Counted from the first letter of the stretch, positions 2,594 to 19,231 are shown. The stretch is 64,000 bases of DNA from an uncultured bacterium (GCA_937895515.1 CALAYS010000012.1:11379-75378); one strand, 5' to 3'. Notes: a model not told the origin generated them from the sequence alone. A program made the numbers and translations.

Positions 2594-3508
2594 TTGGTTC
2601 TAAACCAATACATTTGGTTGATGATTTTAAACCCACAAGAACAGTTCATTTTACACGCAAATGCAAGAAATATTCTTGCACAGCCATTCTTAAAATGGGC
2701 TGGTGGTAAAAGGCAATTGTTACCAACAATAAGAAAATATTTACCTCAAACTTTTAATACTTACTACGAACCTTTTGTTGGTGCTGGAGCATTATTATTT
2801 GAAATGCAACCTAAAAAAGCTGTAATAAATGATGTTAATACTGATTTAATCAATTGTTATACAGTTATAAGAGATTTACCAACTGATTTAATACAGGATT
2901 TAAAGAAGCATGAAAATAGTAGCGAATATTTTTATTCAATCCGAGAACTTGATCGAACTAATGAATTCAAAAACCTTAACCTTATTGAAAGAGCTTCAAG
3001 AATAATATATTTAAATAAGACTTGCTACAATGGGCTTTTTCGGGTTAACAGACAAGGGCAATTTAACTCACCATTTGGTAGATATAAGAAACCTAACTAC
3101 TTTAATCCAGAAGTATTGTATGCAATAAGTTCATATTTAAATGAGAACGATGTTAAAATTTTAAATGTCGATTTTTCGAAGGTGGTTGAAACTGCCGAAA
3201 AAGGAGATTTTATTTATTTCGATCCTCCATATGACCCTCTCTCAGAAACTTCTTCATTTACTGGATATAGTTTAAACCAATTTGGTAAAAGTGAACAAGA
3301 AAGATTAAAAGATGTTTTCGAAGCACTAACAATAAAAGGATGTAAAGTAATGTTAAGCAATTCATCCACTGAGTTTATTTCCAAACTATATGAGGATTAT
3401 AATATAGTTCGGATACAGGCTAATAGAAATATAAACTCTGTAGGTTCTGGGAGAAAGAAAATCGAGGAATATTTAATTCTTAATTATAACCCTGATAATG
3501 ACGAGTAA
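2594..3508 (+). CDS. Dam-family (D12 class, alpha-type) N6-adenine DNA methyltransferase
   Basis: FLKWAGGKRQLL (AdoMet-binding motif) near the N-terminus and DPPY catalytic motif (FDPPYDPLS) downstream. The track start is TTG 2594; ATG at 2621 is the more likely start. Confidence 0.9.
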   Translation: MVLNQYIWLMILNPQEQFILHANARNILAQPFLKWAGGKRQLLPTIRKYLPQTFNTYYEPFVGAGALLFEMQPKKAVINDVNTDLINCYTVIRDLPTDLIQDLKKHENSSEYFYSIRELDRTNEFKNLNLIERASRIIYLNKTCYNGLFRVNRQGQFNSPFGRYKKPNYFNPEVLYAISSYLNENDVKILNVDFSKVVETAEKGDFIYFDPPYDPLSETSSFTGYSLNQFGKSEQERLKDVFEALTIKGCKVMLSNSSTEFISKLYEDYNIVRIQANRNINSVGSGRKKIEEYLILNYNPDNDE

Positions 3509-4760
3509 TGATATTGCTTGGGATAAAATATTTGAGGAATTAAACATTTCGAAAGAATTAACACGAATTCCGTATTTTCAAATTACTGCCTCGCAAATTA
3601 ATACAATTGGTAAACGGGAAGCCCGTTTGATGGCTAAATTCGATACAAAGGAATCGCTACCACAAATATTTAAAGACTCAGAATTAAATATTAATGCAAT
3701 TTCTAATGGAAGTTATATAATCTTCAAAGATGAAAAACATCAAAGTTTTATTTCTCTGCCAGATTATAAAGAAATTATTCCTCGAAAAGTAACTCCTGTC
3801 TTGGATTTTGAACTTCAAACCCTCCTATTTGCTCCAAGAATGTCGGAGAGTAATGCTCTAGATTTTGCCCATCATTCAAGAATACTTAATAACTATTGTG
3901 GTGAAAAAGAATTGAAGTTAACCACAAGGGGTAGATTTTTTTCCGATGGCTTTAATTTTCAATTAGGTAAATTGGGTGAAATAGGAGTTAAGGGGGTACA
4001 GATAGAAGTAGATGCTGGATATGAAGGGAGAGAACAGTTTCTAATAATTGAGGCTAAAAGTAGTACTCGTTCAAATTTCAACATACGTCAATTATATTAC
4101 CCATATAGGCATTTTGAAAAGAAAACAACAAAAAAAATAAGAGCTATCCTACTCTCTTTTAGTAATGGAATTTATTATTTTACTGAAATCGAATTGCATC
4201 CAAATTACTATGATTACCGAATTATCAATAATGAAGCTATAGAGGTAGTTATTGAAGAAAAATCAGAAGAAGCAAGTATTATAGCCTTTCTATCACAACC
4301 AACCCATACCCCGCATAGTATTCCAGTTCCGCAAGCAGATAATTTAGACAAAGTGATTGATTTAGCTGCTTTCTTGTTAGATGGACCTCGTGATAAATTT
4401 GAAATAGCCGAATATTTTGAATTTGATGAACGTCAAGGTGATTATTACGGAAATGCAGCGATGTATATTGGTTTGGTTGAAAAAAGTGCGGGATTGTTTA
4501 AGTTAACAGAATTAGGAAATGAAATAGTACATTTCCAAAACAGGGAAAATAGAAATTTCCAAGTCGTAAAAGCGATTTTAAAAACAAGAGTTTTCAATGA
4601 TCTAGTGAGCTTGTACCTTAAGCAACAAAACCAAATGGATGATCAACAAATTATTAAAAGACTTAGCGAAGAAGGTTTAACTGGCAGCACCCCCCAAAGA
4701 AGAAAAAGTACAGTAAGGTCATGGCTAAATTGGATTTTATCTAATCTGCCAAAAAAATAA
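3498..4760 (+). CDS. putative type II restriction endonuclease (PD-(D/E)XK fold) with C-terminal wHTH-like region
   Basis: ATG overlaps the MTase stop by 11 nt. Segment IEVDAGYEGREQFLIIEAKSS supplies a D...E-x-K nuclease motif. No family assignment possible by eye. Confidence 0.6.
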   Translation: MTSNDIAWDKIFEELNISKELTRIPYFQITASQINTIGKREARLMAKFDTKESLPQIFKDSELNINAISNGSYIIFKDEKHQSFISLPDYKEIIPRKVTPVLDFELQTLLFAPRMSESNALDFAHHSRILNNYCGEKELKLTTRGRFFSDGFNFQLGKLGEIGVKGVQIEVDAGYEGREQFLIIEAKSSTRSNFNIRQLYYPYRHFEKKTTKKIRAILLSFSNGIYYFTEIELHPNYYDYRIINNEAIEVVIEEKSEEASIIAFLSQPTHTPHSIPVPQADNLDKVIDLAAFLLDGPRDKFEIAEYFEFDERQGDYYGNAAMYIGLVEKSAGLFKLTELGNEIVHFQNRENRNFQVVKAILKTRVFNDLVSLYLKQQNQMDDQQIIKRLSEEGLTGSTPQRRKSTVRSWLNWILSNLPKK

Positions 4761-4774
4761 AATTCACCATCCGG

Positions 4775-5251
4775 TTACAAAATTCCTTCATCAGCAAAAC
4801 TGAAATACTCATTATATGCAGTTACAATCACATGGTCTCTTACTGGAATATCAAGAACATTTCCAGCATCTTTTAATTTTCTTGTAAGTAATTTATCAGA
4901 TTCACTTGGTATAAGATTTCCTGATGGATGATTGTGACTTAGAATAATGCTAGTAGCGTTAGCCAATAAAGCTCCTTGAAATATATTTCTAATATCAGCT
5001 ACTGTTCCGGTAATTCCACCTTCACTCACTTGCATTGAACCAAGTAACCTATTGGCTCTATTGAGAAACAATACAAAAAAGAATTCTTTGTGTTCAATCT
5101 TATTGGGATCATACACTTGCATAAGAATTTCAAATGCTTGTCGGGAGCTTACAATTTTATACCGATCATTCGCATTAACACGAGAGATATAGTGAAGTTC
5201 AACTTCTGCAACTTTTAATAATGGATTTTCTTGGATTTGGGACTTTAACAT
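4775..5251 (-). CDS. radC: RadC-like JAB/MPN domain protein
   Basis: 158 aa; JAMM signature HNHPSGNLIPSESD and upstream E; short stand-alone RadC typical of mobile elements. Confidence 0.85.
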   Translation of the reverse strand: MLKSQIQENPLLKVAEVELHYISRVNANDRYKIVSSRQAFEILMQVYDPNKIEHKEFFFVLFLNRANRLLGSMQVSEGGITGTVADIRNIFQGALLANATSIILSHNHPSGNLIPSESDKLLTRKLKDAGNVLDIPVRDHVIVTAYNEYFSFADEGIL

Positions 5252-5254
5252 ATA

Positions 5255-5393
5255 TTTTTTCGATTAGTAAAGCGGTCCCAAGGCTGACTAAGGTAATTGT
5301 ACGTGGAATAAAAGATGGATAGTGAAATGGAAGGTGTTTATGCCGCGAAAGCACTTACCAGTCAGACATACCTTTGCTTACTAATCGAAAAAA
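5255..5393. repeat. 139-nt imperfect long inverted repeat (rod-like hairpin; candidate ncRNA or MITE-like element)
   Basis: TTTTTTCGATTAGTA (5255-5269) pairs perfectly with TACTAATCGAAAAAA (5379-5393). Inner pairings are CTGACT/AGTCAG and GGTAA/TTACC. The apical region contains GC-GAAA-GC. Confidence 0.55.
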
Positions 5394-5474
5394 TGTTTAA
5401 ACCAAATCCAAAAAATCCACTTAAAATTAAAAGACAGGTGAAAACTGAAATACATAAATTCTAATTAGATTTGT

Positions 5475-5999
5475 TTGATTGTAAATAGTAACATGAAACA
5501 GGCAGTTTTTATAACAGGGTTCAATAATTGGGGTAAAACCAGAATCATTGAACATTTATTCAGAAGAAGAAGATTTCATAATGGGTGGTATTTTGCAATA
5601 CCAGGAATAAACGCAAACTTTACAGTTGAAAGTCATTCAAATGATGACTGGGGTTCTGCTTGGCCTGTAAGGGTTCAAAACCGGATTAACAGAGAACCTA
5701 TTAGTGATTTAAATCTTTTCACAGCCTTATGCCCTACGATGGATATAAATAACAACTTCGTTAATTTATTATCAAATCCTCCGTTTACCGCCTATGATAA
5801 ATTACATATAATCCTGATTGAATATAAATGGGAACATCACGCAAAACTTATAATAAATAATATTACAACTGCCGGAGCCAATATTCCAAATGTAAATTTT
5901 ATTACAATAAATGCGGATCAGAATCAGTTAACAGACCAATCGAGATGGCAGGCTAAGACATCTCAAATAAGACAGGAATTGGGAATATTATTCCCATAA
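5475..5999 (+). CDS. hypothetical small P-loop protein
   Basis: 174-aa ORF, TTG start (ATG 18 nt downstream); Walker-A-like GFNNWGKT; the palindrome GGGAATATTATTCCC overlaps its end. Confidence 0.5.
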   Translation: MIVNSNMKQAVFITGFNNWGKTRIIEHLFRRRRFHNGWYFAIPGINANFTVESHSNDDWGSAWPVRVQNRINREPISDLNLFTALCPTMDINNNFVNLLSNPPFTAYDKLHIILIEYKWEHHAKLIINNITTAGANIPNVNFITINADQNQLTDQSRWQAKTSQIRQELGILFP

Positions 6000-6460
6000 A
6001 AATCAATTAAAATATCAATGCTCCGCAGGACAGCACAGGCAGTGGCTACTTGGGTTTACCCCCTTGAACATAATGACTTATTATAGAATTTTTTTACTAT
6101 TGAATAAAAATAGGTATACCAAAAAAATGCGAAGCGAATCTATAATTCGTAATTATGTTAAGTAGCTTCCGGTAGTTTATTCTGTCATAAACAGTACGAA
6201 GGGGCGCAAATGCGTACTGTGGCTTTTTGCTTAAAATTTATACTTGGAAGAGGTCATGTGTTGAGGCTTTGAAATGAAATGGAAAAGCTATAGCACATGG
6301 GCTAAGTGATTTGGTAAATTTATAGCAAAAAGTATGAAAGAATAAATTACCGGCACTGCCTGTGTGGGTTAAAATTATATTATTTGGAAAACTTTATAAA
6401 AATAGCAATATTAAAAAAATAGCTTAAATTAGCATAATTATTAGGTCATAAATAAAAGAC

Positions 6461-7693
6461 GTGATTAAAATACTTCATACAAATGACATCCATTCCAATA
6501 TCCATAATAGTATTGAACTATTCGAGTATTTGCATCAGGAAAAGAAAAACGATACTTTAACTATTGATTTAGGTGACTTTTTTCAAGGTAATTCATTTTA
6601 TAACCTATTTAAAGGGAAACCAGAAAGAAAGCTTCTATTAAAGACATTTGATATTGTTGTACCTGGTAATCATGGTTTTAATGAGTATTTAAAAGTGAAT
6701 TCATTAAAGAAGAAGAAGTCTTTCGTGTTATGTTGTAACATATTCAGAGGGAAATATGAAGTCTTTGATAAGTACCTCGAAATGGAATTCGCAAATACTA
6801 AATTAGGTTTTATAGGTATAATGTCCGAGGATTGTTTTAATTCAATAGAATTACGAACAAGAAAAAACTATTCAGTAATGAATCCCTTTGAAATAGTGGA
6901 AGGGATTATTTCTGAAATAAGATATAAAATAGATTATTTGTTTATTTTAAGTCACTCAGGAGTAGATTTCGATGTAAAATTAGCAAAGTCTTTAAAAGGT
7001 ATTGATTTCATTTTAAGTAGCCATTGCCATTCCTCTATTAAAAAAATAAAAATAGGTAAAACAATCATTAAAAAAAGTTTAGAACTTGGAAAAGGGGTAG
7101 GCATTATAGAAATCAATAATAATAAGATTAAGCTTAGCGAAAAAACATTTAATCATATGGTTATGGATTATACTAATCCTAAATTAACATTTTTAAATCC
7201 TTATCTAGATTTATACGATAAAAAATCAAGTGAAATTATAACTATAATACCACAAAAAAGAATAGAATGGTTTTCAACTAGAGAAAATTTGATGACATTT
7301 TTTATTGAATTAATAGCAGGAGTTTTTAATTCCAACATTTATTTATTTAATCTTACAACAATAAGGTCAGGGATATCTGATCCTAACTTAAGCACTAATG
7401 ATTTATACAATATTTTACCTTTCGAAAATTCAATAATTAAATTTAGTGTAAGTAAAACCAAATTTAATAAATGCATTAAACAAATACCTAGTGACATTAG
7501 AAAGTATCTAATTATCAATATTGTATCCGAACCAAAATTATTATCTATTATTACAACATCTTATTTATATAATAATTACTTTGCAAAATTTATCACTAAA
7601 CAAAAATATATCCATTTAGCTTCTTTTAGGACATTTATAAGCGAACAACTAAAGAATATTGAATTCAACAAATCTCAACATTTAAATTTATAA
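6461..7693 (+). CDS. metallophosphoesterase / 5'-nucleotidase-family protein (no signal peptide)
   Basis: GTG start. Calcineurin-like motifs are intact: HTNDIH, DLGDFFQG, GNHGFNE, LSHSG, SSHCHS. Long C-terminal domain as in UshA-type nucleotidases. Confidence 0.75.
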   Translation: MIKILHTNDIHSNIHNSIELFEYLHQEKKNDTLTIDLGDFFQGNSFYNLFKGKPERKLLLKTFDIVVPGNHGFNEYLKVNSLKKKKSFVLCCNIFRGKYEVFDKYLEMEFANTKLGFIGIMSEDCFNSIELRTRKNYSVMNPFEIVEGIISEIRYKIDYLFILSHSGVDFDVKLAKSLKGIDFILSSHCHSSIKKIKIGKTIIKKSLELGKGVGIIEINNNKIKLSEKTFNHMVMDYTNPKLTFLNPYLDLYDKKSSEIITIIPQKRIEWFSTRENLMTFFIELIAGVFNSNIYLFNLTTIRSGISDPNLSTNDLYNILPFENSIIKFSVSKTKFNKCIKQIPSDIRKYLIINIVSEPKLLSIITTSYLYNNYFAKFITKQKYIHLASFRTFISEQLKNIEFNKSQHLNL

Positions 7694-7706
7694 TTATGTT
7701 TCTAAT

Positions 7707-8510
7707 ATGACAGCACTAGAAGAAATGAACCTAATTTATGGCATTAGATTAATTCTCATCCCATCATCAGAGTTTTATATGGGCAGGCTACCATTGGATC
7801 GTGAGTATCCAATTTTAACTGATCCAGTAAAGAAATCAATAGAAAAAAGCTTTTGGATGAGTGATACACCAATAACTAATAGACAATATGCCAGTTATTT
7901 GGATGATGCAAACAAACCTATTCCAACTTATACAATAGAGCATTGGGATTTTAGTTGGGTTAAGGTAAACGGATTTGATAAGTATCTTTTAGAAAACCCA
8001 AACGCACCTTTAGTAGGAGTAAATTATAAAGATGCGTCAGCGTTTATTTCTTGGTTAACAACCAAGTCCAATTTAGCCATTAGATTTCCAACGGAAGCCG
8101 AATTTGAATATGCATCTAAAGCTGATTGTTCATGCAAATATTATTGCCAAAAGGCGGTAAATATTAAAAAGTCACTACGAGATTATGGAGAACCTTCAAA
8201 TAAGAAAGTTCCCTCAGTAAAAAGGTATGAAGCCAATAGTTTTAAGCTATTTGATATGCAAGGATTAATATGGCAATGGTGTTCTGATTGGTTTTGGCCT
8301 CTTGAAAACGTTAAAAATCTTAATCCAAAAGACCCACATGAAAAGCCATCTTATACACCGTGGAAGGGTCATAACTTGTCTCCAGGGAGGGTAATAAGGG
8401 GTGGTTCTTTTAATTATAGCGTCTTACATTCCCGATGTTCATCAAGGCATTACACAAATGAAAACGATAGAAATTTCAATTTGGGTTTCAGAATAGCAGC
8501 CAATTTATAG
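7707..8510 (+). CDS. FGE-sulfatase (SUMF1/formylglycine-generating enzyme family) domain protein
   Basis: 267 aa; VGVNYKDASAFISWL, QWCSDWF, IRGGSFNY and terminal NLGFRIA blocks typical of the family. Confidence 0.8.
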   Translation: MTALEEMNLIYGIRLILIPSSEFYMGRLPLDREYPILTDPVKKSIEKSFWMSDTPITNRQYASYLDDANKPIPTYTIEHWDFSWVKVNGFDKYLLENPNAPLVGVNYKDASAFISWLTTKSNLAIRFPTEAEFEYASKADCSCKYYCQKAVNIKKSLRDYGEPSNKKVPSVKRYEANSFKLFDMQGLIWQWCSDWFWPLENVKNLNPKDPHEKPSYTPWKGHNLSPGRVIRGGSFNYSVLHSRCSSRHYTNENDRNFNLGFRIAANL

Positions 8511-8536
8511 ATACTTCATTTAAATATAAATAAGTA

Positions 8537-9586
8537 CTAAACTATTTCTTCTCCTTCAAGAATATCTTCAATAACTGTTTGCGCCAATTCCTTTGGGATA
8601 ATCTTAATCATGTTATTCTTAATCTCGTAAGATGATGCACTAATCTGTTTTAATTTTAGACTGATATCAGATGTTATGAATTCCTCTTGTTCCAAAAAGA
8701 CCGTTATTCCTAATGATGCAAAATATTCACAATTTTCAATTTGATCACCACGACTAACACTTAAAGGTAATGGGATTGCTAAATGCGGAATCCCTGCCAA
8801 AATTAGCTCCCAAAGAGAATTTGCACCTCCTCGGCAAATAGCTATATCCACTTCAGACAAGACTGATGAAAAATCATGAACAAATTCAAACTGGGAATAC
8901 CCATTAAGAGAAATTAAGTCTAAGCTTAAATTTCCTGCTCCACAAATATGAATTATATCATAGTCTATTAAAAGTTCATTAATTGAACTCCGAACTTTTT
9001 GATTTATTGCTTTTGCTCCTAAACTTCCACCATACACTAGGAGTTTTTGTCTTGAACGATCACTATTTAGCTCAATAGAGGATTTTTTAATATATGAAGC
9101 AATTGGACCTACGTATTTGCCTTTTTTGAATTTTTCTGCTGTTCTTGAAAATGTACAAGTTATGTGTGTAGCGAAAGGTATACTTAATTTATGCGCCAAG
9201 CCTAATGAAAGGTCACAAACATGTATATCAATTATTTTAACGCCAATTATTCTTGCTCCAACAACTACAGGTAAACTAGCAAAACCCCCTGTTACAAATA
9301 CGGCATTAGGTTTTAGTTTTAGAAATAAGAAAAAAGATTGAATAATTCCGATTAGATTAAAAAAAGCAGACAGAGGTAATGTTAGTTTATGAGTTCTATC
9401 GAATTTGGCTGTTTTTATTGAAAAAAATCGCACACCATGTTTTTTACACAGGGTCTCTTCTATAGAATTCTTACCACCAACATAATAAATATTCCAATTC
9501 TTATCCTTAAGATGTTCGGAGATTCTTAAGCTAGGAAGCACGTGCCCCGCACTTCCTCCACCTCCAATAATCAGGGTTCTTGACAT
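8537..9586 (-). CDS. MurG-like family 28 glycosyltransferase
   Basis: 349 aa; N-terminal GGGGSAGHVLPSL and C-terminal RGGANSLWELILAGIPHLAIPLP...GDQIENC match MurG/GT28 signatures. It lies in the AT-rich accessory locus, so housekeeping murG identity is uncertain. Confidence 0.8.
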   Translation of the reverse strand: MSRTLIIGGGGSAGHVLPSLRISEHLKDKNWNIYYVGGKNSIEETLCKKHGVRFFSIKTAKFDRTHKLTLPLSAFFNLIGIIQSFFLFLKLKPNAVFVTGGFASLPVVVGARIIGVKIIDIHVCDLSLGLAHKLSIPFATHITCTFSRTAEKFKKGKYVGPIASYIKKSSIELNSDRSRQKLLVYGGSLGAKAINQKVRSSINELLIDYDIIHICGAGNLSLDLISLNGYSQFEFVHDFSSVLSEVDIAICRGGANSLWELILAGIPHLAIPLPLSVSRGDQIENCEYFASLGITVFLEQEEFITSDISLKLKQISASSYEIKNNMIKIIPKELAQTVIEDILEGEEIV

Positions 9587-9663
9587 AATACAAGTATAGT
9601 TTGTCTATGTTTAATAATCAAGTCATTTATTTATAAGTTAGAATTTATTTTGATTATTTAATA

Positions 9664-10884
9664 CTATTTTCTGGTTAGAATCTTTTCAACTAAAATTTCG
9701 ATATCTGATTCGTGAACATCTAAGTTTTGATTTTTATATTGTAACTTAAATAATCCGGTTTCATAAAATATGTTCAAACTACAATTTAACATATCTGATA
9801 AGATAAGTTTTTGATTCACATGAAGTTTTCGGCTATCATAAAGTGTCCTAAATCCATTTTGTGATAGTTTTTTGTATAACTCCCTAGATTTTTCTGATGA
9901 TTCATTCATGTTATTTTGACAGATCATTATCTGAAAAGGTGAAATAATAGATGGAGCGATTTTTCTATTCATATCAAACTCTGTTTCCACTAAAATCTGA
10001 AGTAATCTTGTAACACCAATACCACTGCAATTCATGTAGGGATATTCTAAATTATTTTTTGAGTTTAGAATTCTCATTCCCATTGTCTTTGTATAAATTT
10101 GGTCAAGTTGAAAGATATGAGCAAGTTCTGCACCTCTTTTTTGAATCAACTTATGATTACATATCTGACAATAGTCATTTTGATTATGATTCATTATTGT
10201 AGTCCAAGTATTGCAGTTCTCGCATCCTACCAAAAATGATTCGCCTAAATTATATAAATAAATAAATTCTTGGCTTAATGAACCTCCAATATCACCGTTA
10301 TCAGCCTCAGCCTCAATAAGTTTTAAGCCGAGCCTATTAAATATCAAACGATGAATTTCAATTAATTGTTTATATTGCTCATTTGAAGAATTACTATTTA
10401 TTGCAAAAGAATATGCATCTGCCATTATAAACTCTTTTGTTCTCAATAGACCATTTCTGACCCGAATTTCGTCACGATATACCTTATTAAGACAATACAT
10501 TGTAATTGGCAAATCCTTATGTGATTGAATTACATTACTTAAGGTTTCGACAGATGCTTCTTCATGTGTAGGATTTAGGCACATAAATTTGTTGGATCTG
10601 TCTTTAATTTTCAGTAATGAATCAAAAGATTCCCATCTTAAACTTTTTCTCCATATTTTTTCGGTTAGTAATGTGGGAAATCGAACTTCAAAACAATCAA
10701 AATCGTTAAAACACTTTTTTATTGTTTCTTCCAATCTAGATACCAAAACTGCTCCTAATGGAAGAAGGCAGTAAACACCAACGGATGATTTAGTAACTAT
10801 TTTTAACTTTTCAAGTAGTTCAATGCCTTTTAATGAACTATTAAAATCTCTGAGATCTGGGATTATTGAATTATTTGCGATCAT
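9664..10884 (-). CDS. truncated ProRS-like class II aminoacyl-tRNA synthetase paralog (no INS editing domain, internal CxxC...CxxC)
   Basis: 406 aa. ProRS-type blocks: LLPLGAVLVSRLEETI, NPTHEEAS, motif 2 YRDEIRVRNGLLRTKEFIMADAYSF, HIFQL, motif 3 GIGVTRLLQILVE. Also has a C-terminal anticodon-binding-like domain and CENC...CQIC. Confidence 0.8.
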   Translation of the reverse strand: MIANNSIIPDLRDFNSSLKGIELLEKLKIVTKSSVGVYCLLPLGAVLVSRLEETIKKCFNDFDCFEVRFPTLLTEKIWRKSLRWESFDSLLKIKDRSNKFMCLNPTHEEASVETLSNVIQSHKDLPITMYCLNKVYRDEIRVRNGLLRTKEFIMADAYSFAINSNSSNEQYKQLIEIHRLIFNRLGLKLIEAEADNGDIGGSLSQEFIYLYNLGESFLVGCENCNTWTTIMNHNQNDYCQICNHKLIQKRGAELAHIFQLDQIYTKTMGMRILNSKNNLEYPYMNCSGIGVTRLLQILVETEFDMNRKIAPSIISPFQIMICQNNMNESSEKSRELYKKLSQNGFRTLYDSRKLHVNQKLILSDMLNCSLNIFYETGLFKLQYKNQNLDVHESDIEILVEKILTRK

Positions 10885-10892
10885 ACAATTTG

Positions 10893-10966
10893 TCGGGGTG
10901 GTTGGATTCGAACCAACTCCTCACCATCTAAAAATGATTTGCGCTCACCAGCTACGCTACACCCCA
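10893..10966 (-). tRNA. tRNA-like gene with non-canonical anticodon arm (nominal anticodon UUU)
   Basis: Cloverleaf by hand. The acceptor stem is UGGGGUG/CACCCCG (U1-G72 wobble plus 6 WC pairs) with discriminator A. The D arm is GCGU-AGCUGGUGA-GCGC and the T arm is GUUGG-UUCGAAU-CCAAC. The anticodon arm AAAUCAUUUUUAGAUGGU cannot form a 5-bp stem with a 7-nt loop. It sits 8 nt from both flanking ORFs. Confidence 0.55.
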
Positions 10967-10974
10967 AATTTTAT

Positions 10975-11595
10975 TTATGCTTTTTGAAATAAATTAAGTG
11001 TCAAATAATTTGTGTGCTCAATATGTAGCAAGTTAAATCCACTCAAATTAATTTGTTTAAAATTTAGATAATTAGACTGTTCACACAAATATTTTGCATC
11101 TAAATTGTTATATATTCCAAGCCCTTCTGGAGGTTTTCTCCAAAAAGATATTACCAATATACAACCCAAACTCATCTTTTCTTCTAAAATACTAATAAAT
11201 TGACCTAGTTCTATTTTATTTAAATGGTTGATTGTTCCAAACATAACTGTACAACTGTCAATTGGTCCAATCCCATCATAAGAGGTTTTGTTTGTACAAC
11301 AACCATGCAATAAGGTTGTTTTAAATAAAATATTCTTTTTACAAAAGTATATAGAATCTGCAGATTTGTCCAACCCAATAATATTTCTACAACCCTTATC
11401 ATAAGCCCATTTCAAATACCTACCTGTGCAAGTCCCAACATCAAGATGAGTATGACCTTTAAGCGATTCTAATCCGATTTTTTGATATAAAATCGATAAT
11501 AACTTTAATTCCTCATCCTTAATTTTCTCTAAATCTTGGGATCCACAATCATAACTCTTCAAAAGTTCTTTGCTATAATATTTAAAATCCAACAT
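10975..11595 (-). CDS. class I SAM-dependent methyltransferase
   Basis: 206 aa; motif I HLDVGTCTGRY followed by IIGLDKS (acidic post-I residue). Confidence 0.75.
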   Translation of the reverse strand: MLDFKYYSKELLKSYDCGSQDLEKIKDEELKLLSILYQKIGLESLKGHTHLDVGTCTGRYLKWAYDKGCRNIIGLDKSADSIYFCKKNILFKTTLLHGCCTNKTSYDGIGPIDSCTVMFGTINHLNKIELGQFISILEEKMSLGCILVISFWRKPPEGLGIYNNLDAKYLCEQSNYLNFKQINLSGFNLLHIEHTNYLTLNLFQKA

Positions 11596-11604
11596 ATAAT
11601 AATT

Positions 11605-12699
11605 CTATTGATTTAATACAGTCAAACTTAACTCTTTAACATTTTTAATAAAATATTCCATTTTAAAAGCATTAGCATATTCTTTACCGTTTTTTGAAAT
11701 TGATTCCCAAAAGTGAACTGAATTACGAAGCTTTAAAATAATGGAAGCAAGTTCTTTAAAATTTCCAGGTTCAAACATAATTGAACTTGATGATGGTGGA
11801 ACTGTCTCAACAAGCCCAGATATTTTTGAAATTGCAACAGGTAATCCCACCGCTTGTGCTTCTGCCACAATTAAACCAAAAGCTTCAATTTCTAAACTTG
11901 GAAGCACTAATAATTGGTGTTGTCTCAATAAATGTGGAAGGTCAACTCTATCAATCCAGTCCATATATTTAATTCTGCTTCCTATACGTTTGATTAATTT
12001 ACTTTGGGTTGAATTAAACCTATCACGAGACACAATAGTTAAAGATACTTCTGGTGGCAGGATACAGAATGCTTTTAGGATTGTTTCAATGGATTTGCCA
12101 ATATTTATTCTGCCAGCATATATAACTCTAAACGAATTTTGATCATGAACTGGTAGTTTTTTCAAAGAATTGGTAAAGAAATAGTCTGGAATACCCCAAG
12201 GTATAACATGAGATTTCTTTTTTATCGGGGAAACATATTGACATAGGTTTTCATAAATCCCATTGGACGGAAATATAATTGCGTCCATTTTCTCGATATT
12301 AGTTGAAATTTCTTGCCTTCGTTTTTTAGACCTTATTGCTTCCATTACGTCTGTACCATGGCAAAATCCAATACGTTTTACATTTGGTATTGTAGTTAAA
12401 ATTGATGTCATTGAGAAACAAAGGTGGTGACAGTGAATAACATCTGGAGCTTCTTTAGTGACAATCTCTTTAACAAGTAAATTTAATTCGGAATGATATT
12501 CTTTTGGCTGTAATAATTTTTGATGCTGGGTCAAAGGAAGCAAGTATTTTACAGCTTTTATGTATTTTACATCCTCAGGATTCAAAGCAATAAAGGGTGT
12601 TTCAAAGCCGATTTTTCCAGATAAATATAAATCTTCAGCTAACTTAATACTCCCACATCCATAATCAATAGGTAAATCTATTCCAGATAGTACTTTCAT
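11605..12699 (-). CDS. GT4-family glycosyltransferase
   Basis: 364 aa; C-terminal EAFGLIVAEAQAVGLPVAIS (E-x7-E type GT-B retaining signature). Confidence 0.85.
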   Translation of the reverse strand: MKVLSGIDLPIDYGCGSIKLAEDLYLSGKIGFETPFIALNPEDVKYIKAVKYLLPLTQHQKLLQPKEYHSELNLLVKEIVTKEAPDVIHCHHLCFSMTSILTTIPNVKRIGFCHGTDVMEAIRSKKRRQEISTNIEKMDAIIFPSNGIYENLCQYVSPIKKKSHVIPWGIPDYFFTNSLKKLPVHDQNSFRVIYAGRINIGKSIETILKAFCILPPEVSLTIVSRDRFNSTQSKLIKRIGSRIKYMDWIDRVDLPHLLRQHQLLVLPSLEIEAFGLIVAEAQAVGLPVAISKISGLVETVPPSSSSIMFEPGNFKELASIILKLRNSVHFWESISKNGKEYANAFKMEYFIKNVKELSLTVLNQ

Positions 12700-12701
12700 T
12701 T

Positions 12702-13217
12702 TCAGAGTTTTAATTCTATTTTAGAGGGCATAGGACCTATAGAGTTTTGATACTTTCCACAATATAATCGTTTTTCACCTATTGATTTCCAAAATGAAAC
12801 CTGACCAATTTTCATTCCTGGGTAAACTACTATCGGCAAAACCGGATGAAGTTGAAGAGTGAATTGACCATAGAAACCCAAATCAATTAGATTTGCTGTA
12901 ACATGAACAAATAACCCTAACCTTGCAATGGAAGACTTTGCACTTATTATTGGAACAAACTCATTACTTCCAATACATTGTATTGTGTAACCTAGAAAGA
13001 ATGATCCAGCCGGCAATGTTAAGCCACTTTCTGGTATTATTACCTCCTCGTAATTATTGTTACCTAACACAGATACTACCTCGGAAGTATACCTTATTAA
13101 ATAATTCCCAAGTCTAAAATCATAGCTATTTGGGTTTATTAGTTCAACATCAAAAGGGTCAATCATAATGCTGCCTTTACTAACTTGTTTAATAATTTCA
13201 GGACCTGTCAATATCAT
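12702..13217 (-). CDS. dCTP deaminase-fold (Dcd/dUTPase superfamily) paralog with Gln at the catalytic Glu position
   Basis: 171 aa; AKSSIARLGLFVHVTA aligns with E. coli Dcd GRSSLARLGL. The LE of the catalytic VLE block reads TLQL here (Q122, codon 12852-12854). Confidence 0.8.
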   Translation of the reverse strand: MILTGPEIIKQVSKGSIMIDPFDVELINPNSYDFRLGNYLIRYTSEVVSVLGNNNYEEVIIPESGLTLPAGSFFLGYTIQCIGSNEFVPIISAKSSIARLGLFVHVTANLIDLGFYGQFTLQLHPVLPIVVYPGMKIGQVSFWKSIGEKRLYCGKYQNSIGPMPSKIELKL

Positions 13218-13734
13218 CGTTAAATAAAAGAGGATTAGGGAAAGAGGGTTCGTTTAGCGTACCTAATAGACCTGAATATTTTTTCACAATACCTTTGGGT
13301 TTCCAGAAACTAACTTGTCCAATTGGAATTCCTGGATACACTCTAATAGGTACAGTAGGCACTAGTTCTAAGGTCCATCGATGGAAAATGCCAATATTAC
13401 TTAAATCAGCTGAAACCTGCATAAATAGGCCAAGTCTACCTATAGAACTACGTCCAATAAGTGAAATAACATACGATGATGAACCGATTTTTTCTTCGGT
13501 AACTCCCAAATACAGATTCCCAGGTGTCAAAATCATACCTTTTTTATCCATTACAGTAAGGTTATTTTCAAAATTTGATAAAGGGTTAATTTCTGTTCCC
13601 GGTGGTATTGTCTTTATTTCAGCCCCTAAATGATAATTATAACTATTAGGATTTATAGATGATTCCCTAAAAGGTGAAATTAAAATTTTGCCTGAAGTAA
13701 TTTTTTCTTTTATTTCACAACCTGTTAAAATCAT
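13198..13734 (-). CDS. dCTP deaminase-fold (Dcd-like) protein, catalytic Glu retained
   Basis: 178 aa; GRSSIGRLGLFMQVSA and WTLEL (E123, codon 13366-13368); overlaps the downstream paralog by 20 nt. Confidence 0.8.
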   Translation of the reverse strand: MILTGCEIKEKITSGKILISPFRESSINPNSYNYHLGAEIKTIPPGTEINPLSNFENNLTVMDKKGMILTPGNLYLGVTEEKIGSSSYVISLIGRSSIGRLGLFMQVSADLSNIGIFHRWTLELVPTVPIRVYPGIPIGQVSFWKPKGIVKKYSGLLGTLNEPSFPNPLLFNDDIDRS

Positions 13735-13788
13735 TTTTATGATAAAAGCCCGATATTAATTATTTATTAATCATTTTGAAAATTAATT

Positions 13789-14466
13789 ATGAATATTTTT
13801 GAAAAAAATAATGGTACTAAGATTTGTGCTATATTTTCTCATCCCGATGACGCAGAATTACTGTGCTACGGAACGTTAGCTAAATACAGAAAAGAGAACT
13901 TTGATATTACTATAATAATAGTAACTGGAGGAATTCATGGTGTTGCGGTATCAGAAGAAAAGTCGCAAGATTTAGAAGAAATTAGATCTTCAGAAACCAT
14001 TGAAGCTTTAAAAGAAGTTTCCTTTGACATCCGATTTCTTGGATTGCCCGATGGTTCAGTACAATTTACAAATGAAAATGTTTCAACAATCGAGAAAATA
14101 CTAAACCACCTTAGCCCTTCCGTTGTTATAACTCATTACACCGATCTTTCAGGAATAGATCACCAAGATCATCACATCGTTTCAAAAATTGTTAAAAACA
14201 TCAGTAACAGAAAGAGTTATATTAAGCTATTATTATGCGCAGAGCCTTTAAAACGAGGGACTGGCTTTAACCCAAACTTATTTGTGAGGGTAGGAGAATT
14301 TTATAAGCAAAAATTGGCAGCAATAAACAAACACAAGTCTCAATTTGGTCGAATTTATATGACAGAATCTTTCCACAATGTCAGAAGTTTGGTTTGGAAA
14401 AACAATTTAGGATTTAGTGACGAAGAATATATAGAAGCATTCATTATTGAAAAAGCCATATCATAA
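13789..14466 (+). CDS. PIG-L/LmbE-family N-acetylglucosaminyl deacetylase
   Basis: 225 aa; AIFSHPDDAELL zinc-binding signature and downstream HQDHH. Confidence 0.85.
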   Translation: MNIFEKNNGTKICAIFSHPDDAELLCYGTLAKYRKENFDITIIIVTGGIHGVAVSEEKSQDLEEIRSSETIEALKEVSFDIRFLGLPDGSVQFTNENVSTIEKILNHLSPSVVITHYTDLSGIDHQDHHIVSKIVKNISNRKSYIKLLLCAEPLKRGTGFNPNLFVRVGEFYKQKLAAINKHKSQFGRIYMTESFHNVRSLVWKNNLGFSDEEYIEAFIIEKAIS

Positions 14467-15221
14467 TGATTAATCAAAAAGTCATTTGTATTCATCAACC
14501 TCCTTTCGCACCTTGGCTTGGTATTGTTGAGAGTATGTTTGCTTCCGATTCTTTTATTATATTCGACGATGTACAATTTGAAAGAGGAGGATATCAAAAT
14601 CGAAATAGAATTAAGTCAATAAAAGGTTCAGAATGGCTAACAATACCTGTAAATCTTGATTTTGGAACTCAATTAAACACGGTTCGCATTGCAGAAAATT
14701 ATTCGGCTAATTCACTTATTAAAACCTTGCGTTCATCATATGGAAAATCTATCTTTTTTAATCAAGTTATGCCAGATTTAGAAAGAATCTTATGCTCCTA
14801 TAAATCTGGAAATTTATTATGTGATTTGAATGTTGAAATTCTCATGTGGATTTCAAATGTTTTAAAATGCTCCTGCGAGTTTATTTATTCAAGTTCTCTT
14901 CAAATAACATACTACGATAGAATAGATAGAATTGGTAAAATTTGCTCTAAATTGGGTGCTACGCATTTGTACAGTGGCTCAGGGATGCTTGGATATTGTA
15001 ATCCTGAAGATATTTTGAAGCAAGGTGTAATACCAATATTCCACAATTATCAAAATCGACACATTGTTTATAATCAACGATTCACTGAAAAAGGATTTAT
15101 ACCTTGTTTATCCGTTTTAGATTTATTCTTTAATATTGGATATAATCAATCTTCAGAATTATTAAAACAATCAGCAAATAAGATACTCAAAGAAGCATTA
15201 AAATTAAATACTATATATTAG
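14466..15221 (+). CDS. WbqC-family protein
   Basis: 251 aa; N-terminal IHQPPFAPWLGIVESM...IFDDVQFERGGYQNRNRI matches the WbqC signature as I recall it. The start overlaps the PIG-L stop (ATAATG). Confidence 0.7.
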   Translation: MINQKVICIHQPPFAPWLGIVESMFASDSFIIFDDVQFERGGYQNRNRIKSIKGSEWLTIPVNLDFGTQLNTVRIAENYSANSLIKTLRSSYGKSIFFNQVMPDLERILCSYKSGNLLCDLNVEILMWISNVLKCSCEFIYSSSLQITYYDRIDRIGKICSKLGATHLYSGSGMLGYCNPEDILKQGVIPIFHNYQNRHIVYNQRFTEKGFIPCLSVLDLFFNIGYNQSSELLKQSANKILKEALKLNTIY

Positions 15222-16092
15222 CGTAATTAAAATATGCCCTCCATAGTTGTCTTGATAAGGAAGGGTTTACTTCTATTTGTCCTTCTCCTAAAGCTGTGCG
15301 TCCGTGAGCATAATGCAATTGACTAAATATCAAAGCTTGAGAACTTTCCAAACTAATAATAATTTGATTCCTTTTTAAAAGTGTTTCATATTGCATTATA
15401 GCATGTATTAAAACTTCTCTTTGATTAAGCTTTAAATTTGGATGTAAATTAAACCATTTTGATAGTTTGGAAGTAAATCTTACCCTTGAAGATTCTCTAG
15501 CTGGTAGTATTGAGAAAGTGGTTAAGTGTTGACCTACTTGTTCCAAGCCTTCATCTTTCCAGTAGGTAAATCTTTTCTTCCTTAACACGTCAGCATATTT
15601 TTGAGGTAGTTTTGAATGCACACCTAAATCTGAAAGAAGAGTACTCCCTCCATTTTTTGAGTCTGGTCGCTCACAAAGTATAGTCATCCCCAAAGGGAAA
15701 TGCGAAAAAGTTAACATATCAATATGAAATGGATTTTCTCCTATGCCATTACCGGCATTGGGGTCTGCCATTAAATCAACTCCTAATGAATACCAAAATG
15801 AATTATCCCTTTTTTCAACTTGTAACACCATTCCTATTAATGCCATTAATGAAATCAATGCTCTTTTAATTTCTTCCATCTCTGATTCAAAGGTCAGTAA
15901 AAAAATTTTACCTTCTGACACTTCATTTAATTTATTAATAAATACTTGGCAATCTTTAGTTGGGGTACCCATCAAATCATTGTGATCAATAATTCTGTGG
16001 GTATTAATTTCAGTCGGCAATAACTTTGATAGTTCTTTTACAATATTTTGACCAACCGACATTCTAAATAATCTAGATTCATCTTGCTTCAT
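15211..16092 (-). CDS. TauD/TfdA-type Fe(II)/2-oxoglutarate dioxygenase
   Basis: 293 aa; HxD (PFHIDM), GGSTLL block and distal HGRT consistent with the 2-His-1-carboxylate plus Arg pattern. Converges on WbqC with an 11-nt overlap. Confidence 0.65.
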   Translation of the reverse strand: MKQDESRLFRMSVGQNIVKELSKLLPTEINTHRIIDHNDLMGTPTKDCQVFINKLNEVSEGKIFLLTFESEMEEIKRALISLMALIGMVLQVEKRDNSFWYSLGVDLMADPNAGNGIGENPFHIDMLTFSHFPLGMTILCERPDSKNGGSTLLSDLGVHSKLPQKYADVLRKKRFTYWKDEGLEQVGQHLTTFSILPARESSRVRFTSKLSKWFNLHPNLKLNQREVLIHAIMQYETLLKRNQIIISLESSQALIFSQLHYAHGRTALGEGQIEVNPSLSRQLWRAYFNYANI

Positions 16093-16150: not shown

Positions 16151-17335
16151 TCAATTTCTTTTAATAGTACATGCACTGAATGGCTGACAAGTAGCTCCAT
16201 CAATCATTAATTTTAGATACATTGTATAACGAGGTAAATTAACCAAATCTATTTCCGTAAATACCGGATGAAATTCCTTTACTAAAAATTCAGCATCACT
16301 TGCTCCAATCCTAAAAGAGATTAAAGTTCCGATATTCCCGAAAATTGCTGAACGTATTTCATCTTTTAATTGCTCAATATATTGGTTTGCCAAAAATAAC
16401 CCCAAACCATATTTCCTGCTTTCGGCCAATATATCAGCTATAGAGTTTGTAATAAATGACTGACATTCATCAATATATAAATAAAACGGTCTGCGGGTGT
16501 GTTCCGGTTGCCTTGCCCTATATAAAGCAGAAAGTTGTATTGTATTGACCAACATACAACCTAAGAGTGATGATATATCCTCACCTAACTTTCCCTTACC
16601 AAGATTAGCAATGAATATCTTACCTTCATCCATTACTTTTTGCATATGGAATCCTGTGGTTTTTTGCCCAACAATGCCTCGCAAAATTGCACTACTTGAA
16701 AAAATACCTACCTTGTTTAAAATCGGTGCAATAGCTTCCGACCTGAAACTTGGTGAATACTTTTCAAATTCATCATACCAAAATCGCAAGACCTCTTTGG
16801 TCTCAACACTTGATAAAATATCGTTTCTAAACTCTTTACTGGTCAACAATGGCTGTATATCAAGCAAGGTAGCATTTCTGTATTCCAACAGAGTCAATAA
16901 ACTAAACCGTAATATATGTTCAAGCCTTGGACCCCAACTATCAGCCCAAATTTTCTTAAATGTACTCAAAAGCCCTGAACAAACTAAATGATGAAAATTT
17001 GGGTGTACATTTTTTAATGGATTATACGCGATAGGATGCCCAACATCGGCAGGGTTGAAATAGATAAGGTCTTCTTTTCGGTCATCTGGAATATATTTTA
17101 AAAGTGTTTCGGCAACATCACCATGTGGATCAATCACACAAAATCCGTTACCACGTTTAATATCTGAAATAGCCATATTTAAAAGCAAGGTAGATTTACC
17201 TGTGCCGGTTTTACCAATACAGTAAATATGCCCTAATCTATCTTTGTCTTTAATACCAAATATTCGGTCATCGTTTCTAAAATTGACTCTCCCAATGGGG
17301 GTGATTTGTTCTTTGTATTCATAATTTTTGTTCAT
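16151..17335 (-). CDS. soluble T4CP (TraD/VirD4/TrwB)- or HerA/FtsK-like P-loop ATPase
   Basis: 394 aa; Walker A GKTGTGKST, Walker B FYLYIDECQSF, no N-terminal TM segment. Confidence 0.75.
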   Translation of the reverse strand: MNKNYEYKEQITPIGRVNFRNDDRIFGIKDKDRLGHIYCIGKTGTGKSTLLLNMAISDIKRGNGFCVIDPHGDVAETLLKYIPDDRKEDLIYFNPADVGHPIAYNPLKNVHPNFHHLVCSGLLSTFKKIWADSWGPRLEHILRFSLLTLLEYRNATLLDIQPLLTSKEFRNDILSSVETKEVLRFWYDEFEKYSPSFRSEAIAPILNKVGIFSSSAILRGIVGQKTTGFHMQKVMDEGKIFIANLGKGKLGEDISSLLGCMLVNTIQLSALYRARQPEHTRRPFYLYIDECQSFITNSIADILAESRKYGLGLFLANQYIEQLKDEIRSAIFGNIGTLISFRIGASDAEFLVKEFHPVFTEIDLVNLPRYTMYLKLMIDGATCQPFSACTIKRN

Positions 17336-17676: not shown

Positions 17677-19197
17677 ATGAGCAACGTAATACAAATAGAG
17701 AATAAAAGGGCTGTAATATATTGCCGCGTATCAACCAAAGAACAAGTTGATGAAGGTAATAGTCTTGCATCTCAAAACAAAATATGTCGGGATTATGCTC
17801 TAAAAAACGGCTATGAAATAGTTGAGGTTTTTGTTGAGCAAGGTGAAAGCGCAAAAACAACTGACCGGACTGAATTAAAGAATATGCTTGCATACTGCGC
17901 TCAAAAGAAAAACCGTATCAATGCAGTCATAGCTTACAAAATTGACCGTATATCTCGAAATATGGACGATTACAGCTATATTAGAATAGCACTCAAAAGT
18001 CAGGGTATAGAAATTAAATCTACCTCAGAACATTTTGAAAATACCCCTGCCGGACGTTTTATGGAAAACATAATCGCAAATGTGGCTCAATTTGATAATG
18101 ATGTCCGAACTGAACGCTCTGTTGGTGGGATGCGTGAAGCCACTAAAGAAGGCCGTTATGTTTGGATGGCACCTGTGGGATATGACAATATTAAAATAGC
18201 AGGAAAATCAACGATAGCTAAAAATGCATTAGCTCCTCTAATTTTAGAAGCTTTTCAAAAAGTTGCACAAAATGAATGTTCAATAGATGAGGTCTATCGT
18301 TGGGCAAGACAACAAGGTTTAGTCAGTAGAAACGGCAAACCTGTTGTTCAATCATATTTCTATATGATGTTACGGAATGAGCTCTATGCTGGTTGGATAT
18401 TAAAATTTGGAGAACGACATAAAGGATTATTTGAACCTATTATATCTGAGGAGCTATTTAACCGTGTCCAAAGGGTTATTAAAAACAGAACAAGGGTTAG
18501 TCATAACTATCTGATTGAAAATCCTGACTTCCCATTAAAACGCTTTATTCAGCACCCATCAGGGTTGAAACTTACAGGTTGTTGGTGTCAAGGTAGAAAT
18601 GCCAAATATCCATTTTACAGATTTTTAATTAAGGGTGGCTCATTTAATAAGGATTCATTGGAACTAAAGTTTCAAAACCACGCAGATAAGTATCGCTTTG
18701 ACGATAACAAAATAAAGGCTCTGAAAGAAAGTATAAGGGAAAATCTGGTAAAGGAGCAAAAAGGCCAGCAAAAGGAATCTGAAAGACTAATAAGCTATAT
18801 TGGAGAATTAAAAACAAAACAGAGCCTTCTTATTCAGAAAAATCTTGATGGGGTTATAAGTAATCAAATCTTACAAGGTGAACTTGATAGAATAGATCAG
18901 GAACTCATCAAGGCTGAAACTACTTTGGATAGAATTCCTAAAACCTATTACTCAATTGAAGATATGGCTGATTTTATTGAGAAATTTCTAAAAAACCCAA
19001 GTAAAATATGGTCTATTGCAGAACCAGATGAAAAACGAAATTTGCAATGGTTTGAATTTCCGCAAGGTTTGACCTTTGATGGAGCAAACTTTCAAACCAA
19101 AGAAATATCCAGTCTTTTCAAGCTGAATGAGGAATTTTCTGATGAAAATTCCTTTAGAGTGCTCTCGGCAGGAATCGAACCTGCAACTATTCCTTAG
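17677..19197 (+). CDS. large serine recombinase (integrase)
   Basis: 506 aa; resolvase catalytic domain (AVIYCRVSTKEQ, YKIDRISR), recombinase domain and long coiled-coil C-terminal part. The last 38 nt overlap the tRNA-Arg gene on the opposite strand. Confidence 0.9.
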   Translation: MSNVIQIENKRAVIYCRVSTKEQVDEGNSLASQNKICRDYALKNGYEIVEVFVEQGESAKTTDRTELKNMLAYCAQKKNRINAVIAYKIDRISRNMDDYSYIRIALKSQGIEIKSTSEHFENTPAGRFMENIIANVAQFDNDVRTERSVGGMREATKEGRYVWMAPVGYDNIKIAGKSTIAKNALAPLILEAFQKVAQNECSIDEVYRWARQQGLVSRNGKPVVQSYFYMMLRNELYAGWILKFGERHKGLFEPIISEELFNRVQRVIKNRTRVSHNYLIENPDFPLKRFIQHPSGLKLTGCWCQGRNAKYPFYRFLIKGGSFNKDSLELKFQNHADKYRFDDNKIKALKESIRENLVKEQKGQQKESERLISYIGELKTKQSLLIQKNLDGVISNQILQGELDRIDQELIKAETTLDRIPKTYYSIEDMADFIEKFLKNPSKIWSIAEPDEKRNLQWFEFPQGLTFDGANFQTKEISSLFKLNEEFSDENSFRVLSAGIEPATIP

Positions 19198-19231
19198 GAC
19201 GGAACTGTTATATCCATTTAACTACAAGAGC
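19160..19231 (-). tRNA. tRNA-Arg (anticodon CCU)
   Basis: Hand-folded cloverleaf: acceptor GCUCUUG/CGAGAGC, D arm GUUA/UAAC, anticodon stem GUUCC/GGAAU with loop GUCCUAA, T arm GCAGG-UUCGAUU-CCUGC, discriminator A. Confidence 0.9.

Follow-up and report, generated by a model that had tools for sequence, protein, structure and literature searches.

The closest described system to the locus analyzed here is the ProRSx/tRNAProX operon of Streptomyces and Kitasatospora, in which a paralog of prolyl-tRNA synthetase (ProRS) is encoded together with a tRNA. The operon was given as lmbE, WbqC, GT4 (a family 4 glycosyltransferase), proSx, tRNAProX and murG in the Fig. 2 legend of Schuntermann et al. 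(2023, JBC, PMC10404621), and was published as mistranslation machinery. The published work was restricted to the synthetase/tRNA pair; proline charging of the tRNA by the paralog was shown only for Streptomyces members in E. coli, and the host role was given as unknown (PMC10404621, PMC11415595), with a role outside protein synthesis allowed (PMC10404621). The DNA examined in this study (the window) is a stretch of 64,000 nucleotides from an uncultured bacterium (GCA_937895515.1 CALAYS010000012.1:11379-75378). Homology and gene content identify a cassette at positions 6461-16092 of the window as an ortholog, and a distant variant, of the Streptomyces/Kitasatospora operon. The cassette comprises twelve genes and one tRNA, listed below with coordinates, strand and basis of assignment.

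6461..7693, + strand: 5'-nucleotidase (UshA/CD73)-type metallophosphoesterase (Pfam Metallophos; PDB sequence matches are the nucleotidases 3ivd and 2z1a)
7707..8510, + strand: FGE-sulfatase-domain protein, accessory cassette member (Pfam PF03781)
8537..9586, - strand: GT28/MurG-like glycosyltransferase (Pfam PF03033 and PF04101)
9664..10884, - strand: ProRS paralog, ProRSx-like, bacterial type (ProRS models, below cut-off)
10893..10966, - strand: tRNAProX-like tRNA (Rfam tRNA, 46 bits vs. gathering score of 29)
10975..11595, - strand: class I S-adenosylmethionine (SAM)-dependent methyltransferase (weak Pfam methyltransferase matches)
11605..12699, - strand: GT4 retaining glycosyltransferase, BshA/MshA-like (Pfam PF00534, PF13439 and PF20706)
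12702..13217, - strand: DCD-fold paralog b (Pfam DCD; TIGR02274, 112.8 bits)
13198..13734, - strand: DCD-fold paralog a (DCD fold)
13735..13788, no strand: 54-bp spacer between the divergent gene groups (read from the sequence)
13789..14466, + strand: PIG-L/LmbE-family N-deacetylase (Pfam PF02585)
14466..15221, + strand: WbqC-family protein (Pfam PF08889, E = 1.9e-51)
15211..16092, - strand: TauD/clavaminate-synthase-like Fe(II)/2-oxoglutarate dioxygenase, convergent (Pfam PF02668)

An earlier note on this DNA had reported the locus as 8537-16092. Since the metallophosphoesterase and FGE genes were found in the same cassette of other genomes, the conserved unit is larger than that. The open reading frames named in the note lie where it had placed them, with every gene assignment supported by Pfam or NCBIfam, and its tRNA-like gene is real (10892-10966 by ARAGORN, 10893-10966 by Rfam). 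Two divergent operons had been proposed to start from a 54-bp region: the spacer is present, promoter-like sites were not enriched over shuffles, and its role as a divergent promoter region is not demonstrated. A terminator scan also gave no enrichment. The locus had further been described as AT-rich; its composition does not set it apart (GC of 0.31-0.33 vs. 0.325 for the whole window). The statement that no pathway with this gene set had been described is incorrect, as lmbE-WbqC-GT4-proSx-tRNA-murG was published as the tRNAProX operon (PMC10404621). Searches of the literature for the gene combination or for post-2023 follow-up returned nothing on function.

For eleven of the twelve proteins, an ortholog was found in actinomycete cassettes (ten in Kitasatospora/Streptomyces, and the FGE protein in the metagenomic locus L015). 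By BLASTP, the ten correspond one-to-one with their Kitasatospora/Streptomyces counterparts and each DCD paralog matches its own, with 47% identity between paralog a and the first DCD of the actinomycete cassettes, and 49-57% between paralog b and the second. The Kitasatospora/Streptomyces loci comprise an RrnaAD-type methyltransferase, metallophosphoesterase, TauD, DCD, DCD, PIG-L, WbqC, GT4, ProRSx, tRNA and GT28, with a HIT gene opposite; a HIT protein is thus added to the nucleotide-enzyme set in the actinomycete cassettes. All four of the published lmbE, WbqC, GT4 and murG-like genes are in the window, orthologous to the Kitasatospora/Streptomyces copies, and two DCD genes, TauD and the metallophosphoesterase are seen in both lineages. 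The window gene order is rearranged relative to the published operon, with the tRNA upstream of the synthetase and a methyltransferase of a different type. Unlike the published system, the window clade lies outside Actinomycetota (one Saprospiraceae metagenome-assembled genome, other loci of 30-55% GC).

All or most of the set was found in the Saprospiraceae metagenome-assembled genome (L001), L004, L009, L014, L015, L019 and a Streptomyces linear plasmid. Recurrence of the same gene set in at least seven independent loci indicates that the arrangement is not due to chance. Cassette loci range from 30 to 72% GC and are often beside recombinases or transposases. L019 holds the whole twelve-gene window set, with the metallophosphoesterase gene cut by the contig end, and L014 holds seven of the twelve genes and the tRNA, between IS66 and TniQ genes. 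The Streptomyces linear plasmid carries the actinomycete version of the cassette. The Saprospiraceae locus, which encodes the synthetase relative with 52% identity, reads serine recombinase, PPDK-like, TauD, WbqC, PIG-L, methyltransferase, tRNA, synthetase and GT28.

The synthetase scores below the NCBIfam ProRS cut-offs (TIGR00409, 286 vs. 307; NF006625, 308 vs. 558). Its best PDB matches are bacterial ProRS, the INS editing domain is absent, and the anticodon-binding domain is divergent and gives a weak match only. Of the 72 columns that are near-invariant in ProRS, the protein retains 51, including those of the arginines in motifs 2 and 3, and it is well supported, as judged from its sequence, as a ProRS paralog with intact catalytic motifs. 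Close relatives are limited to 3 proteins in 5.8e9 clusters (itself, and two of 61% and 52% identity), the next matches being ordinary ProRS at 34-38%. A profile search across 1.84e9 representatives gave one 50%-identity cluster at 808 bits, after which scores fell to 295 bits. The claim of the earlier note that the synthetase is not the housekeeping enzyme agrees with these results: sub-cut-off scores, no editing domain, a weak anticodon-binding match and a single 50% cluster. Scanning a genome collection with synthetase peptide patterns returned housekeeping ProRS only, and tblastn of the synthetase against plasmids returned ordinary proS only.

Compared with ProRSx, the window synthetase lacks INS and is shorter (406 vs. 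556 amino acids). The window clade and ProRSx have two derived residues in common, K-to-A and Y-to-S/T, located in motif 2 and motif 3, at columns that are ≥95% conserved in housekeeping ProRS. A neighbor-joining tree (no outgroup) placed housekeeping ProRS apart from the window clade and ProRSx, each of which was on its own long branch. The two derived residues speak for a common origin of the two synthetases, with which the tree is compatible.

The tRNA was reported by ARAGORN as 'tRNA-???', with an anticodon that could not be named. Gaps of 8 nt separate it on one side from the methyltransferase stop codon and on the other from the synthetase start codon. It has U1·G72, A73, G37 and an 8-nt anticodon loop (UUUUUAGA) that contains no NGG anticodon, CCA is not encoded, and RNAfold favors a lengthened stem with a 4-base loop. 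The tRNA adjoins the synthetase gene in all loci covering the synthetase region. Across an alignment of eight tRNAs, cloverleaf pairs were formed in 97% of cells, with 8 pairs showing compensatory changes (28-44% pairing in slid controls), and G72, A73 and G37 were invariant. The first position carries U, in a U·G pair, in the window as well as in L001, L004 and L009; L014 and L019 have C there. The anticodon loops of the loci read fall into six states: UUA (three loci), UAA, UUG, AGC, AGU and the 8-nt loop of the window. The synthetase partner is well supported by these comparisons as a structurally sound tRNA with the acceptor marks of bacterial ProRS substrates (G72/A73) and no proline anticodon. 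Its interpretation as an attachment site or a pseudogene was rejected: the tRNA is internal, is always beside the synthetase, and has its cloverleaf kept by compensatory changes. Scans with tRNA patterns recovered only L009 and the Saprospiraceae contig from metagenomes, and nothing from viral contigs.

As in the published pair, a ProRS paralog adjoins a tRNA with tRNAPro acceptor identity (G72, A73, G37) and a non-proline anticodon. The published tRNA signature is A33/A34/A15:A48/G21, vs. U33, U34, G15, A48 and A21 in the window, so that A48 alone is in common; A15:A48 is present in the L004 and L009 tRNAs, and A33/A34/G21 is absent from the low-GC clade. Position 1 also differs (U1·G72 in the window vs. 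the published C1:G72), as do the loops: UUA, UAA, UUG or 8 nt in the window clade vs. AGC or AGU beside the Kitasatospora/Streptomyces ProRSx genes and AUU, also published for tRNAProX (PMC10404621). The window-clade tRNAs keep U33, G18G19 and the T-loop, which are canonical and needed by the ribosome. A separate observation concerns the transcript: excision of the tRNA would split the polycistronic message, separating its methyltransferase part from its synthetase part (10884-10975, same strand).

The two DCD-fold paralogs show complementary losses. In paralog b, the catalytic Glu of dCTP deaminase (Dcd), E138 in E. coli numbering, is replaced by Gln (TLQL) in every ortholog and locus; in paralog a, the Glu is kept (TLEL) and the Asp of IDPG is lost. 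Conserved in all cassette loci compared, these losses are a hint that the two proteins form an obligate mixed oligomer or have an activity other than deamination, and a mixed oligomer could rebuild one active site. With E = 1e-28 to 1e-35, the metallophosphoesterase has orthologs in L015, in L019 and in the cassettes of Kitasatospora/Streptomyces. The same pair of DCD paralogs was also observed without a synthetase or tRNA, on the Rhizobium etli plasmid pRetMIM1e (L020, 9496-14300) and a Nonomuraea plasmid (L022, 8438-14731); its neighbors are either genes for a SAM methyltransferase, NUDIX and metallophosphoesterase proteins or genes for an epimerase, an oxidoreductase and GT4. This distribution suggests that the DCD pair is a separable, pyrimidine-nucleotide-modifying module.

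The GT28 protein matches the NCBIfam MurG model NF009102 at 255.8 bits (E = 5e-76), under the cut-off of 339, and its orthologs (31-59% identity) adjoin the synthetase/tRNA pair in all full loci. For the GT4 protein, the closest solved relatives include BshA and MshA, Pfam 'GT4-conflict' also matches, and orthologs are in L011, L012, L014, L015 and L019. The closest NCBIfam models of the PIG-L protein are BshB2/BshB1, under cut-off, its PDB relatives are TT1542 and BcZBP, and orthologs are in all full loci. In a homolog search, the named proteins nearest to WbqC were those encoded in the tRNAProX operon of Kitasatospora and Streptomyces. Neither the WbqC nor the TauD-like protein has PDB sequence relatives. 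The WbqC model from AlphaFold2 is of high confidence (pLDDT of 96, pTM of 0.92) and has no significant PDB fold neighbor, a HUP/TyrRS-like resemblance being non-significant (E ≥ 0.03, TM < 0.3); Fem-like, cyclodipeptide-synthase-like and class II synthetase folds were rejected for it on that ground. The WbqC family appears to have no solved or characterized member.

The dioxygenase shares its HxD...H and Arg motifs with its orthologs. Its fold neighbors are CAS, AsnO, VioC and KDO1 (clavaminate synthase and amino-acid/lysine hydroxylases), and this model of moderate confidence (pLDDT of 67) hints at an amino-acid hydroxylase. Methyltransferase orthologs are in L001, L004, L009, L014 and L019 (29-53% identity). 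Similarity between the window methyltransferase and the actinomycete RrnaAD-type methyltransferase was undetectable; orthology of the two was rejected, and they were treated as positional analogs. The FGE protein is 36% identical to that of L015 (E = 9e-48), where the gene sits between the tRNA and GT28, and the L019 match has E = 6e-51. PADLOC 2.0, run on ten cassette proteins (FGE-like excluded), gave only a weak generic methyltransferase match (mad2, E = 2.4e-5).

GlcNAc (N-acetylglucosamine) transfer by a GT4 enzyme, deacetylation by an LmbE-type enzyme and the supply of an amino acid by a synthetase paralog are likewise combined in the mycothiol (MshA/B/C) and bacillithiol (BshA/B/C) pathways. 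The logic of glycosyltransferase, LmbE deacetylase and amino-acid addition, proposed in the earlier note, is still the most economical reading of the cassette, a lincosamide-like or nucleoside product being speculative. The likeness is one of logic. Scores are low for BshA (54.8 vs. 273.7) and BshB2 (76 vs. 195), no BshC or MshC was found, and the window adds GT28, WbqC, DCD, dioxygenase and nucleotidase genes. MshC is a tRNA-independent CysRS paralog, whereas the window synthetase is a class II ProRS paralog with its own tRNA. The earlier note had modeled the synthetase on MshC and taken the tRNA as incidental; that part was not sustained, because no other partner of the synthetase is as conserved as the tRNA, and any ligation step is therefore probably tRNA-dependent. 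None of the three findings that the note had named as counting against it was obtained, synteny being kept in many genomes.

Ten or more enzymes are held with the synthetase/tRNA pair across phyla, which argues for one shared pathway. Given that the pair stays tied to that many enzymes while its anticodon changes, Pro-tRNA is most simply read as a pathway substrate. The ProRS paralog would charge its private tRNA with proline or a close analog, and the Pro-tRNA would serve as an activated prolyl donor outside the ribosome, in a small-molecule or glycoconjugate pathway. The GT4 (BshA/MshA-like) enzyme, the MurG-like GT28 enzyme, or both, would attach GlcNAc to an acceptor, and the LmbE-type enzyme would strip the acetyl group. 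The prolyl group would then move from the tRNA to the freed amine, with WbqC as a candidate transferase, and the clavaminate-synthase-like dioxygenase and the methyltransferase may tailor the product. The presence of the DCD pair and of a 5'-nucleotidase-like enzyme points to a pyrimidine nucleotide as a possible source of the acceptor or of a co-substrate. That Pro-tRNA donates proline off the ribosome to a deacetylated amino sugar in such a pathway is given an even chance. The fuller proposal is held tentatively and is somewhat unlikely as a whole: an orthogonal ProRS/tRNA pair acting as an RNA carrier of proline for a prolyl-aminosugar conjugate (possibly nucleoside-linked), with WbqC or another protein as a new class of aminoacyl-tRNA-dependent transferase and the Streptomyces mistranslation as a side effect in E. 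coli.

Aminoacyl-tRNA is a non-translational donor for FemXAB, MprF, PacB (pacidamycin) and a Fem-like enzyme acting on the amino sugar of a streptothricin-type antibiotic, and S. aureus has dedicated tRNA isoacceptors reserved for non-translational use. Unlike in those systems, a private synthetase accompanies the window tRNA, and the window is without a Fem/GNAT, cyclodipeptide-synthase or LanB-type domain. In the tailoring of tunicamycin, a nucleoside-sugar conjugate, and of teicoplanin (TunE and Orf2*), an LmbE-family deacetylase frees the amine of a sugar, which then receives another N-acyl group. Compared at the family level, these differ from the window in that a fatty acid is added by an acyltransferase, without a tRNA or a synthetase.

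Several points weigh against off-ribosome proline transfer. Charging, transfer and product are all predictions from sequence, and it is not proven that the window synthetase and ProRSx form one clade. No Pfam or NCBIfam match to Fem/GNAT, cyclodipeptide-synthase or LanB/PEARL-type families was found among the twelve cassette proteins; WbqC as the enzyme that uses Pro-tRNA is a guess, and other WbqC genes occur without a tRNA or synthetase. Over the 21 kb that were read of the Saprospiraceae locus, neither the DCD pair nor GT4 nor the metallophosphoesterase is present, and not all cassettes therefore have the nucleotide part (the L004 contig, at 6.6 kb, is too short to show absence of other cassette genes). 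A U33-U-U-A-G37 loop core is common to three loci of the low-GC clade despite differing anticodon stems, from which it follows that the loop is not evolving freely. Finally, in E. coli, Streptomyces tRNAProX does gain access to the ribosome and causes mistranslation (PMC10404621).

The last two points bear on the main rival explanation, programmed mistranslation or stop-codon read-through, in which the ribosome uses the Pro-tRNA and the proteome is diversified under stress. Proline would be inserted at UAA stops (UUA anticodon), at Leu/Gln codons (UAA, UUG) or by quadruplet reading (8-nt loop), and the enzymes encoded alongside would serve a cell-wall function of their own or be cargo without a relation to the pair. 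Mistranslation in E. coli is established for tRNAProA, tRNAProT and tRNAProN, some of which raise carbenicillin tolerance (PMC10404621), and both the retention of U33, G18G19 and the T-loop in the window clade and the UUA anticodon held in three loci would fit decoding. However, the mistranslation data are all from a heterologous host, and a decoding tRNA normally keeps its anticodon, whereas at least seven loop states, one of 8 nt, are seen here. An ochre suppressor should also harm a 32%-GC genome, in which TAA stops are expected to be common, and the fixed place of the tRNA in a cassette of ten-plus genes across phyla is left unexplained; mistranslation is considered unlikely. Remodeling of the cell envelope was judged distinctly unlikely. 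The MurG-like enzyme would act on lipid I/II or a polyprenyl-linked precursor, and GlcNAc would be deacetylated and prolylated from Pro-tRNA by a Fem-like bridge logic, giving an altered wall that resists lysozyme, antibiotics or phage. The MurG similarity is strong (NF009102, E = 5e-76), the host carries the murein genes MurJ, MurF and a penicillin-binding protein (PBP), and a Kitasatospora MurG paralog can make Lipid II (bioRxiv 10.1101/2020.10.12.336396), though the MurG-like protein of the cassette need not be the characterized MurG2. In addition, the tRNA and murG are the sole surviving pair in some Streptomyces, and expression of tRNAProT led to clumping and lysis in E. coli (PMC10404621). 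Yet membrane proteins, among them a flippase and a polyprenyl-phosphate transferase, are missing from the cassette, and DCD-fold, 5'-nucleotidase and HIT/NUDIX-type enzymes would be superfluous for wall modification.

As cargo for conflict or defense, the cassette would make a toxic aminoacyl-aminosugar nucleoside (an antibiotic, or an anti-phage terminator of chains or translation), or would deplete or alter dCTP on infection, with the private synthetase/tRNA supplying the aminoacyl group or self-resistance. Its islands lie beside recombinases, insertion sequence (IS) elements and TniQ, with SIR2 and HerA-like genes in L019 and a Streptomyces linear plasmid as carrier; the GT4 protein matches 'GT4-conflict', and DCD pairs accompany methyltransferase, GT4 and NUDIX genes on other plasmids. 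The actinomycete cassettes have a HIT protein and a gene of the rRNA-adenine-methyltransferase family, and HIT-type and rRNA-adenine-methyltransferase-family genes are known as self-resistance factors. This explanation is nonetheless very unlikely, given that no PADLOC family other than the weak generic methyltransferase was matched among the ten proteins scanned, that the tRNA pattern was in no phage or viral contig scanned, and that sensor, effector and exporter genes are not consistently present; its chemistry overlaps that of off-ribosome proline transfer and differs chiefly in purpose. A housekeeping ProRS beside a routine polysaccharide cluster, with the tRNA as a decayed pseudogene, is largely refuted and scarcely credible. 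The protein is clearly a ProRS homolog, and WbqC, GT4 and GT28 are common in surface-polysaccharide loci, but the synthetase is under every ProRS equivalog cut-off, is without INS, is on a mobile island, and belongs to a close clade of one 50% cluster in 1.84e9 representatives, and eight loci conserve the tRNA, with compensatory changes. Housekeeping identity was accordingly rejected on the sub-cut-off scores, the partner tRNA without a proline (NGG) anticodon, and the location in an element that has a recombinase at tRNA-Arg as its boundary; canonical ProRS is also present in the cassette-bearing actinomycetes (PMC11415595).

The synthetase/tRNA pair extends beyond Streptomycetaceae, and the enzyme cassette around it is conserved and mobile. 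The operon has more genes than were published: a methyltransferase, a dioxygenase, two DCD paralogs and a nucleotidase-like enzyme are also part of it. The tRNA combines a variable anticodon loop with a fixed acceptor identity and fold. If proline is transferred off the ribosome, a glycoconjugate that contains proline and a new transferase that uses tRNA should exist, both of which can be tested for; the window clade supplies AT-rich, INS-less, compact versions suited to reconstitution. A naturally orthogonal pair with an anticodon-blind synthetase could also serve genetic-code engineering. The main value of the finding lies in the question of what ProRSx/tRNAProX does.

The features to the right of the cassette are as follows.

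16151-17335, - strand: TraD/TrwB-like ATPase
17677-19197, + strand: large serine recombinase (506 amino acids), with its 3' end overlapping tRNA-Arg(CCU)
19159-19231, - strand: tRNA-Arg(CCU), overlapped by the 3' end of the recombinase

The serine recombinase abutting tRNA-Arg and the adjacent TraD-like gene agree with the description of an accessory, mobile locus in the earlier note. To the left of the cassette (window 1-6000) are RadC, a D12 Dam-type methylase, DUF3644 and a DUF6996/6997/7226 protein, and past the tRNA-Arg are the core genes LepA, MurJ, LeuRS, YchF, MurF and one PBP. A second att copy of the tRNA-Arg end was not found within the window. The left border of the element is outside the window, and the cassette is cargo of the integrated element.

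Further genes were observed around the cassette in other loci. The Saprospiraceae locus (L001, 4822-6807) and L004 (3449-5479) both encode a PPDK_N/PEP-utilizer protein of 661-676 amino acids (39% identical), which is phosphoenolpyruvate synthase-like or rifampin-phosphotransferase-like. In the metagenomic contig L019, SIR2_2, HerA-like (DUF87) and two recombinase genes (2256-5272) lie a few kb upstream of the cassette and have the look of a defense island. Radical-SAM/SPASM-domain genes flank the cassette in L009 (17-445), L012 (13535-14431) and L021 (17270-19704), and not in the window. Within the core region of the window, two neighboring genes at 29282-32622 encode SBBP-repeat beta-propeller lipoproteins (LipL53-family matches).

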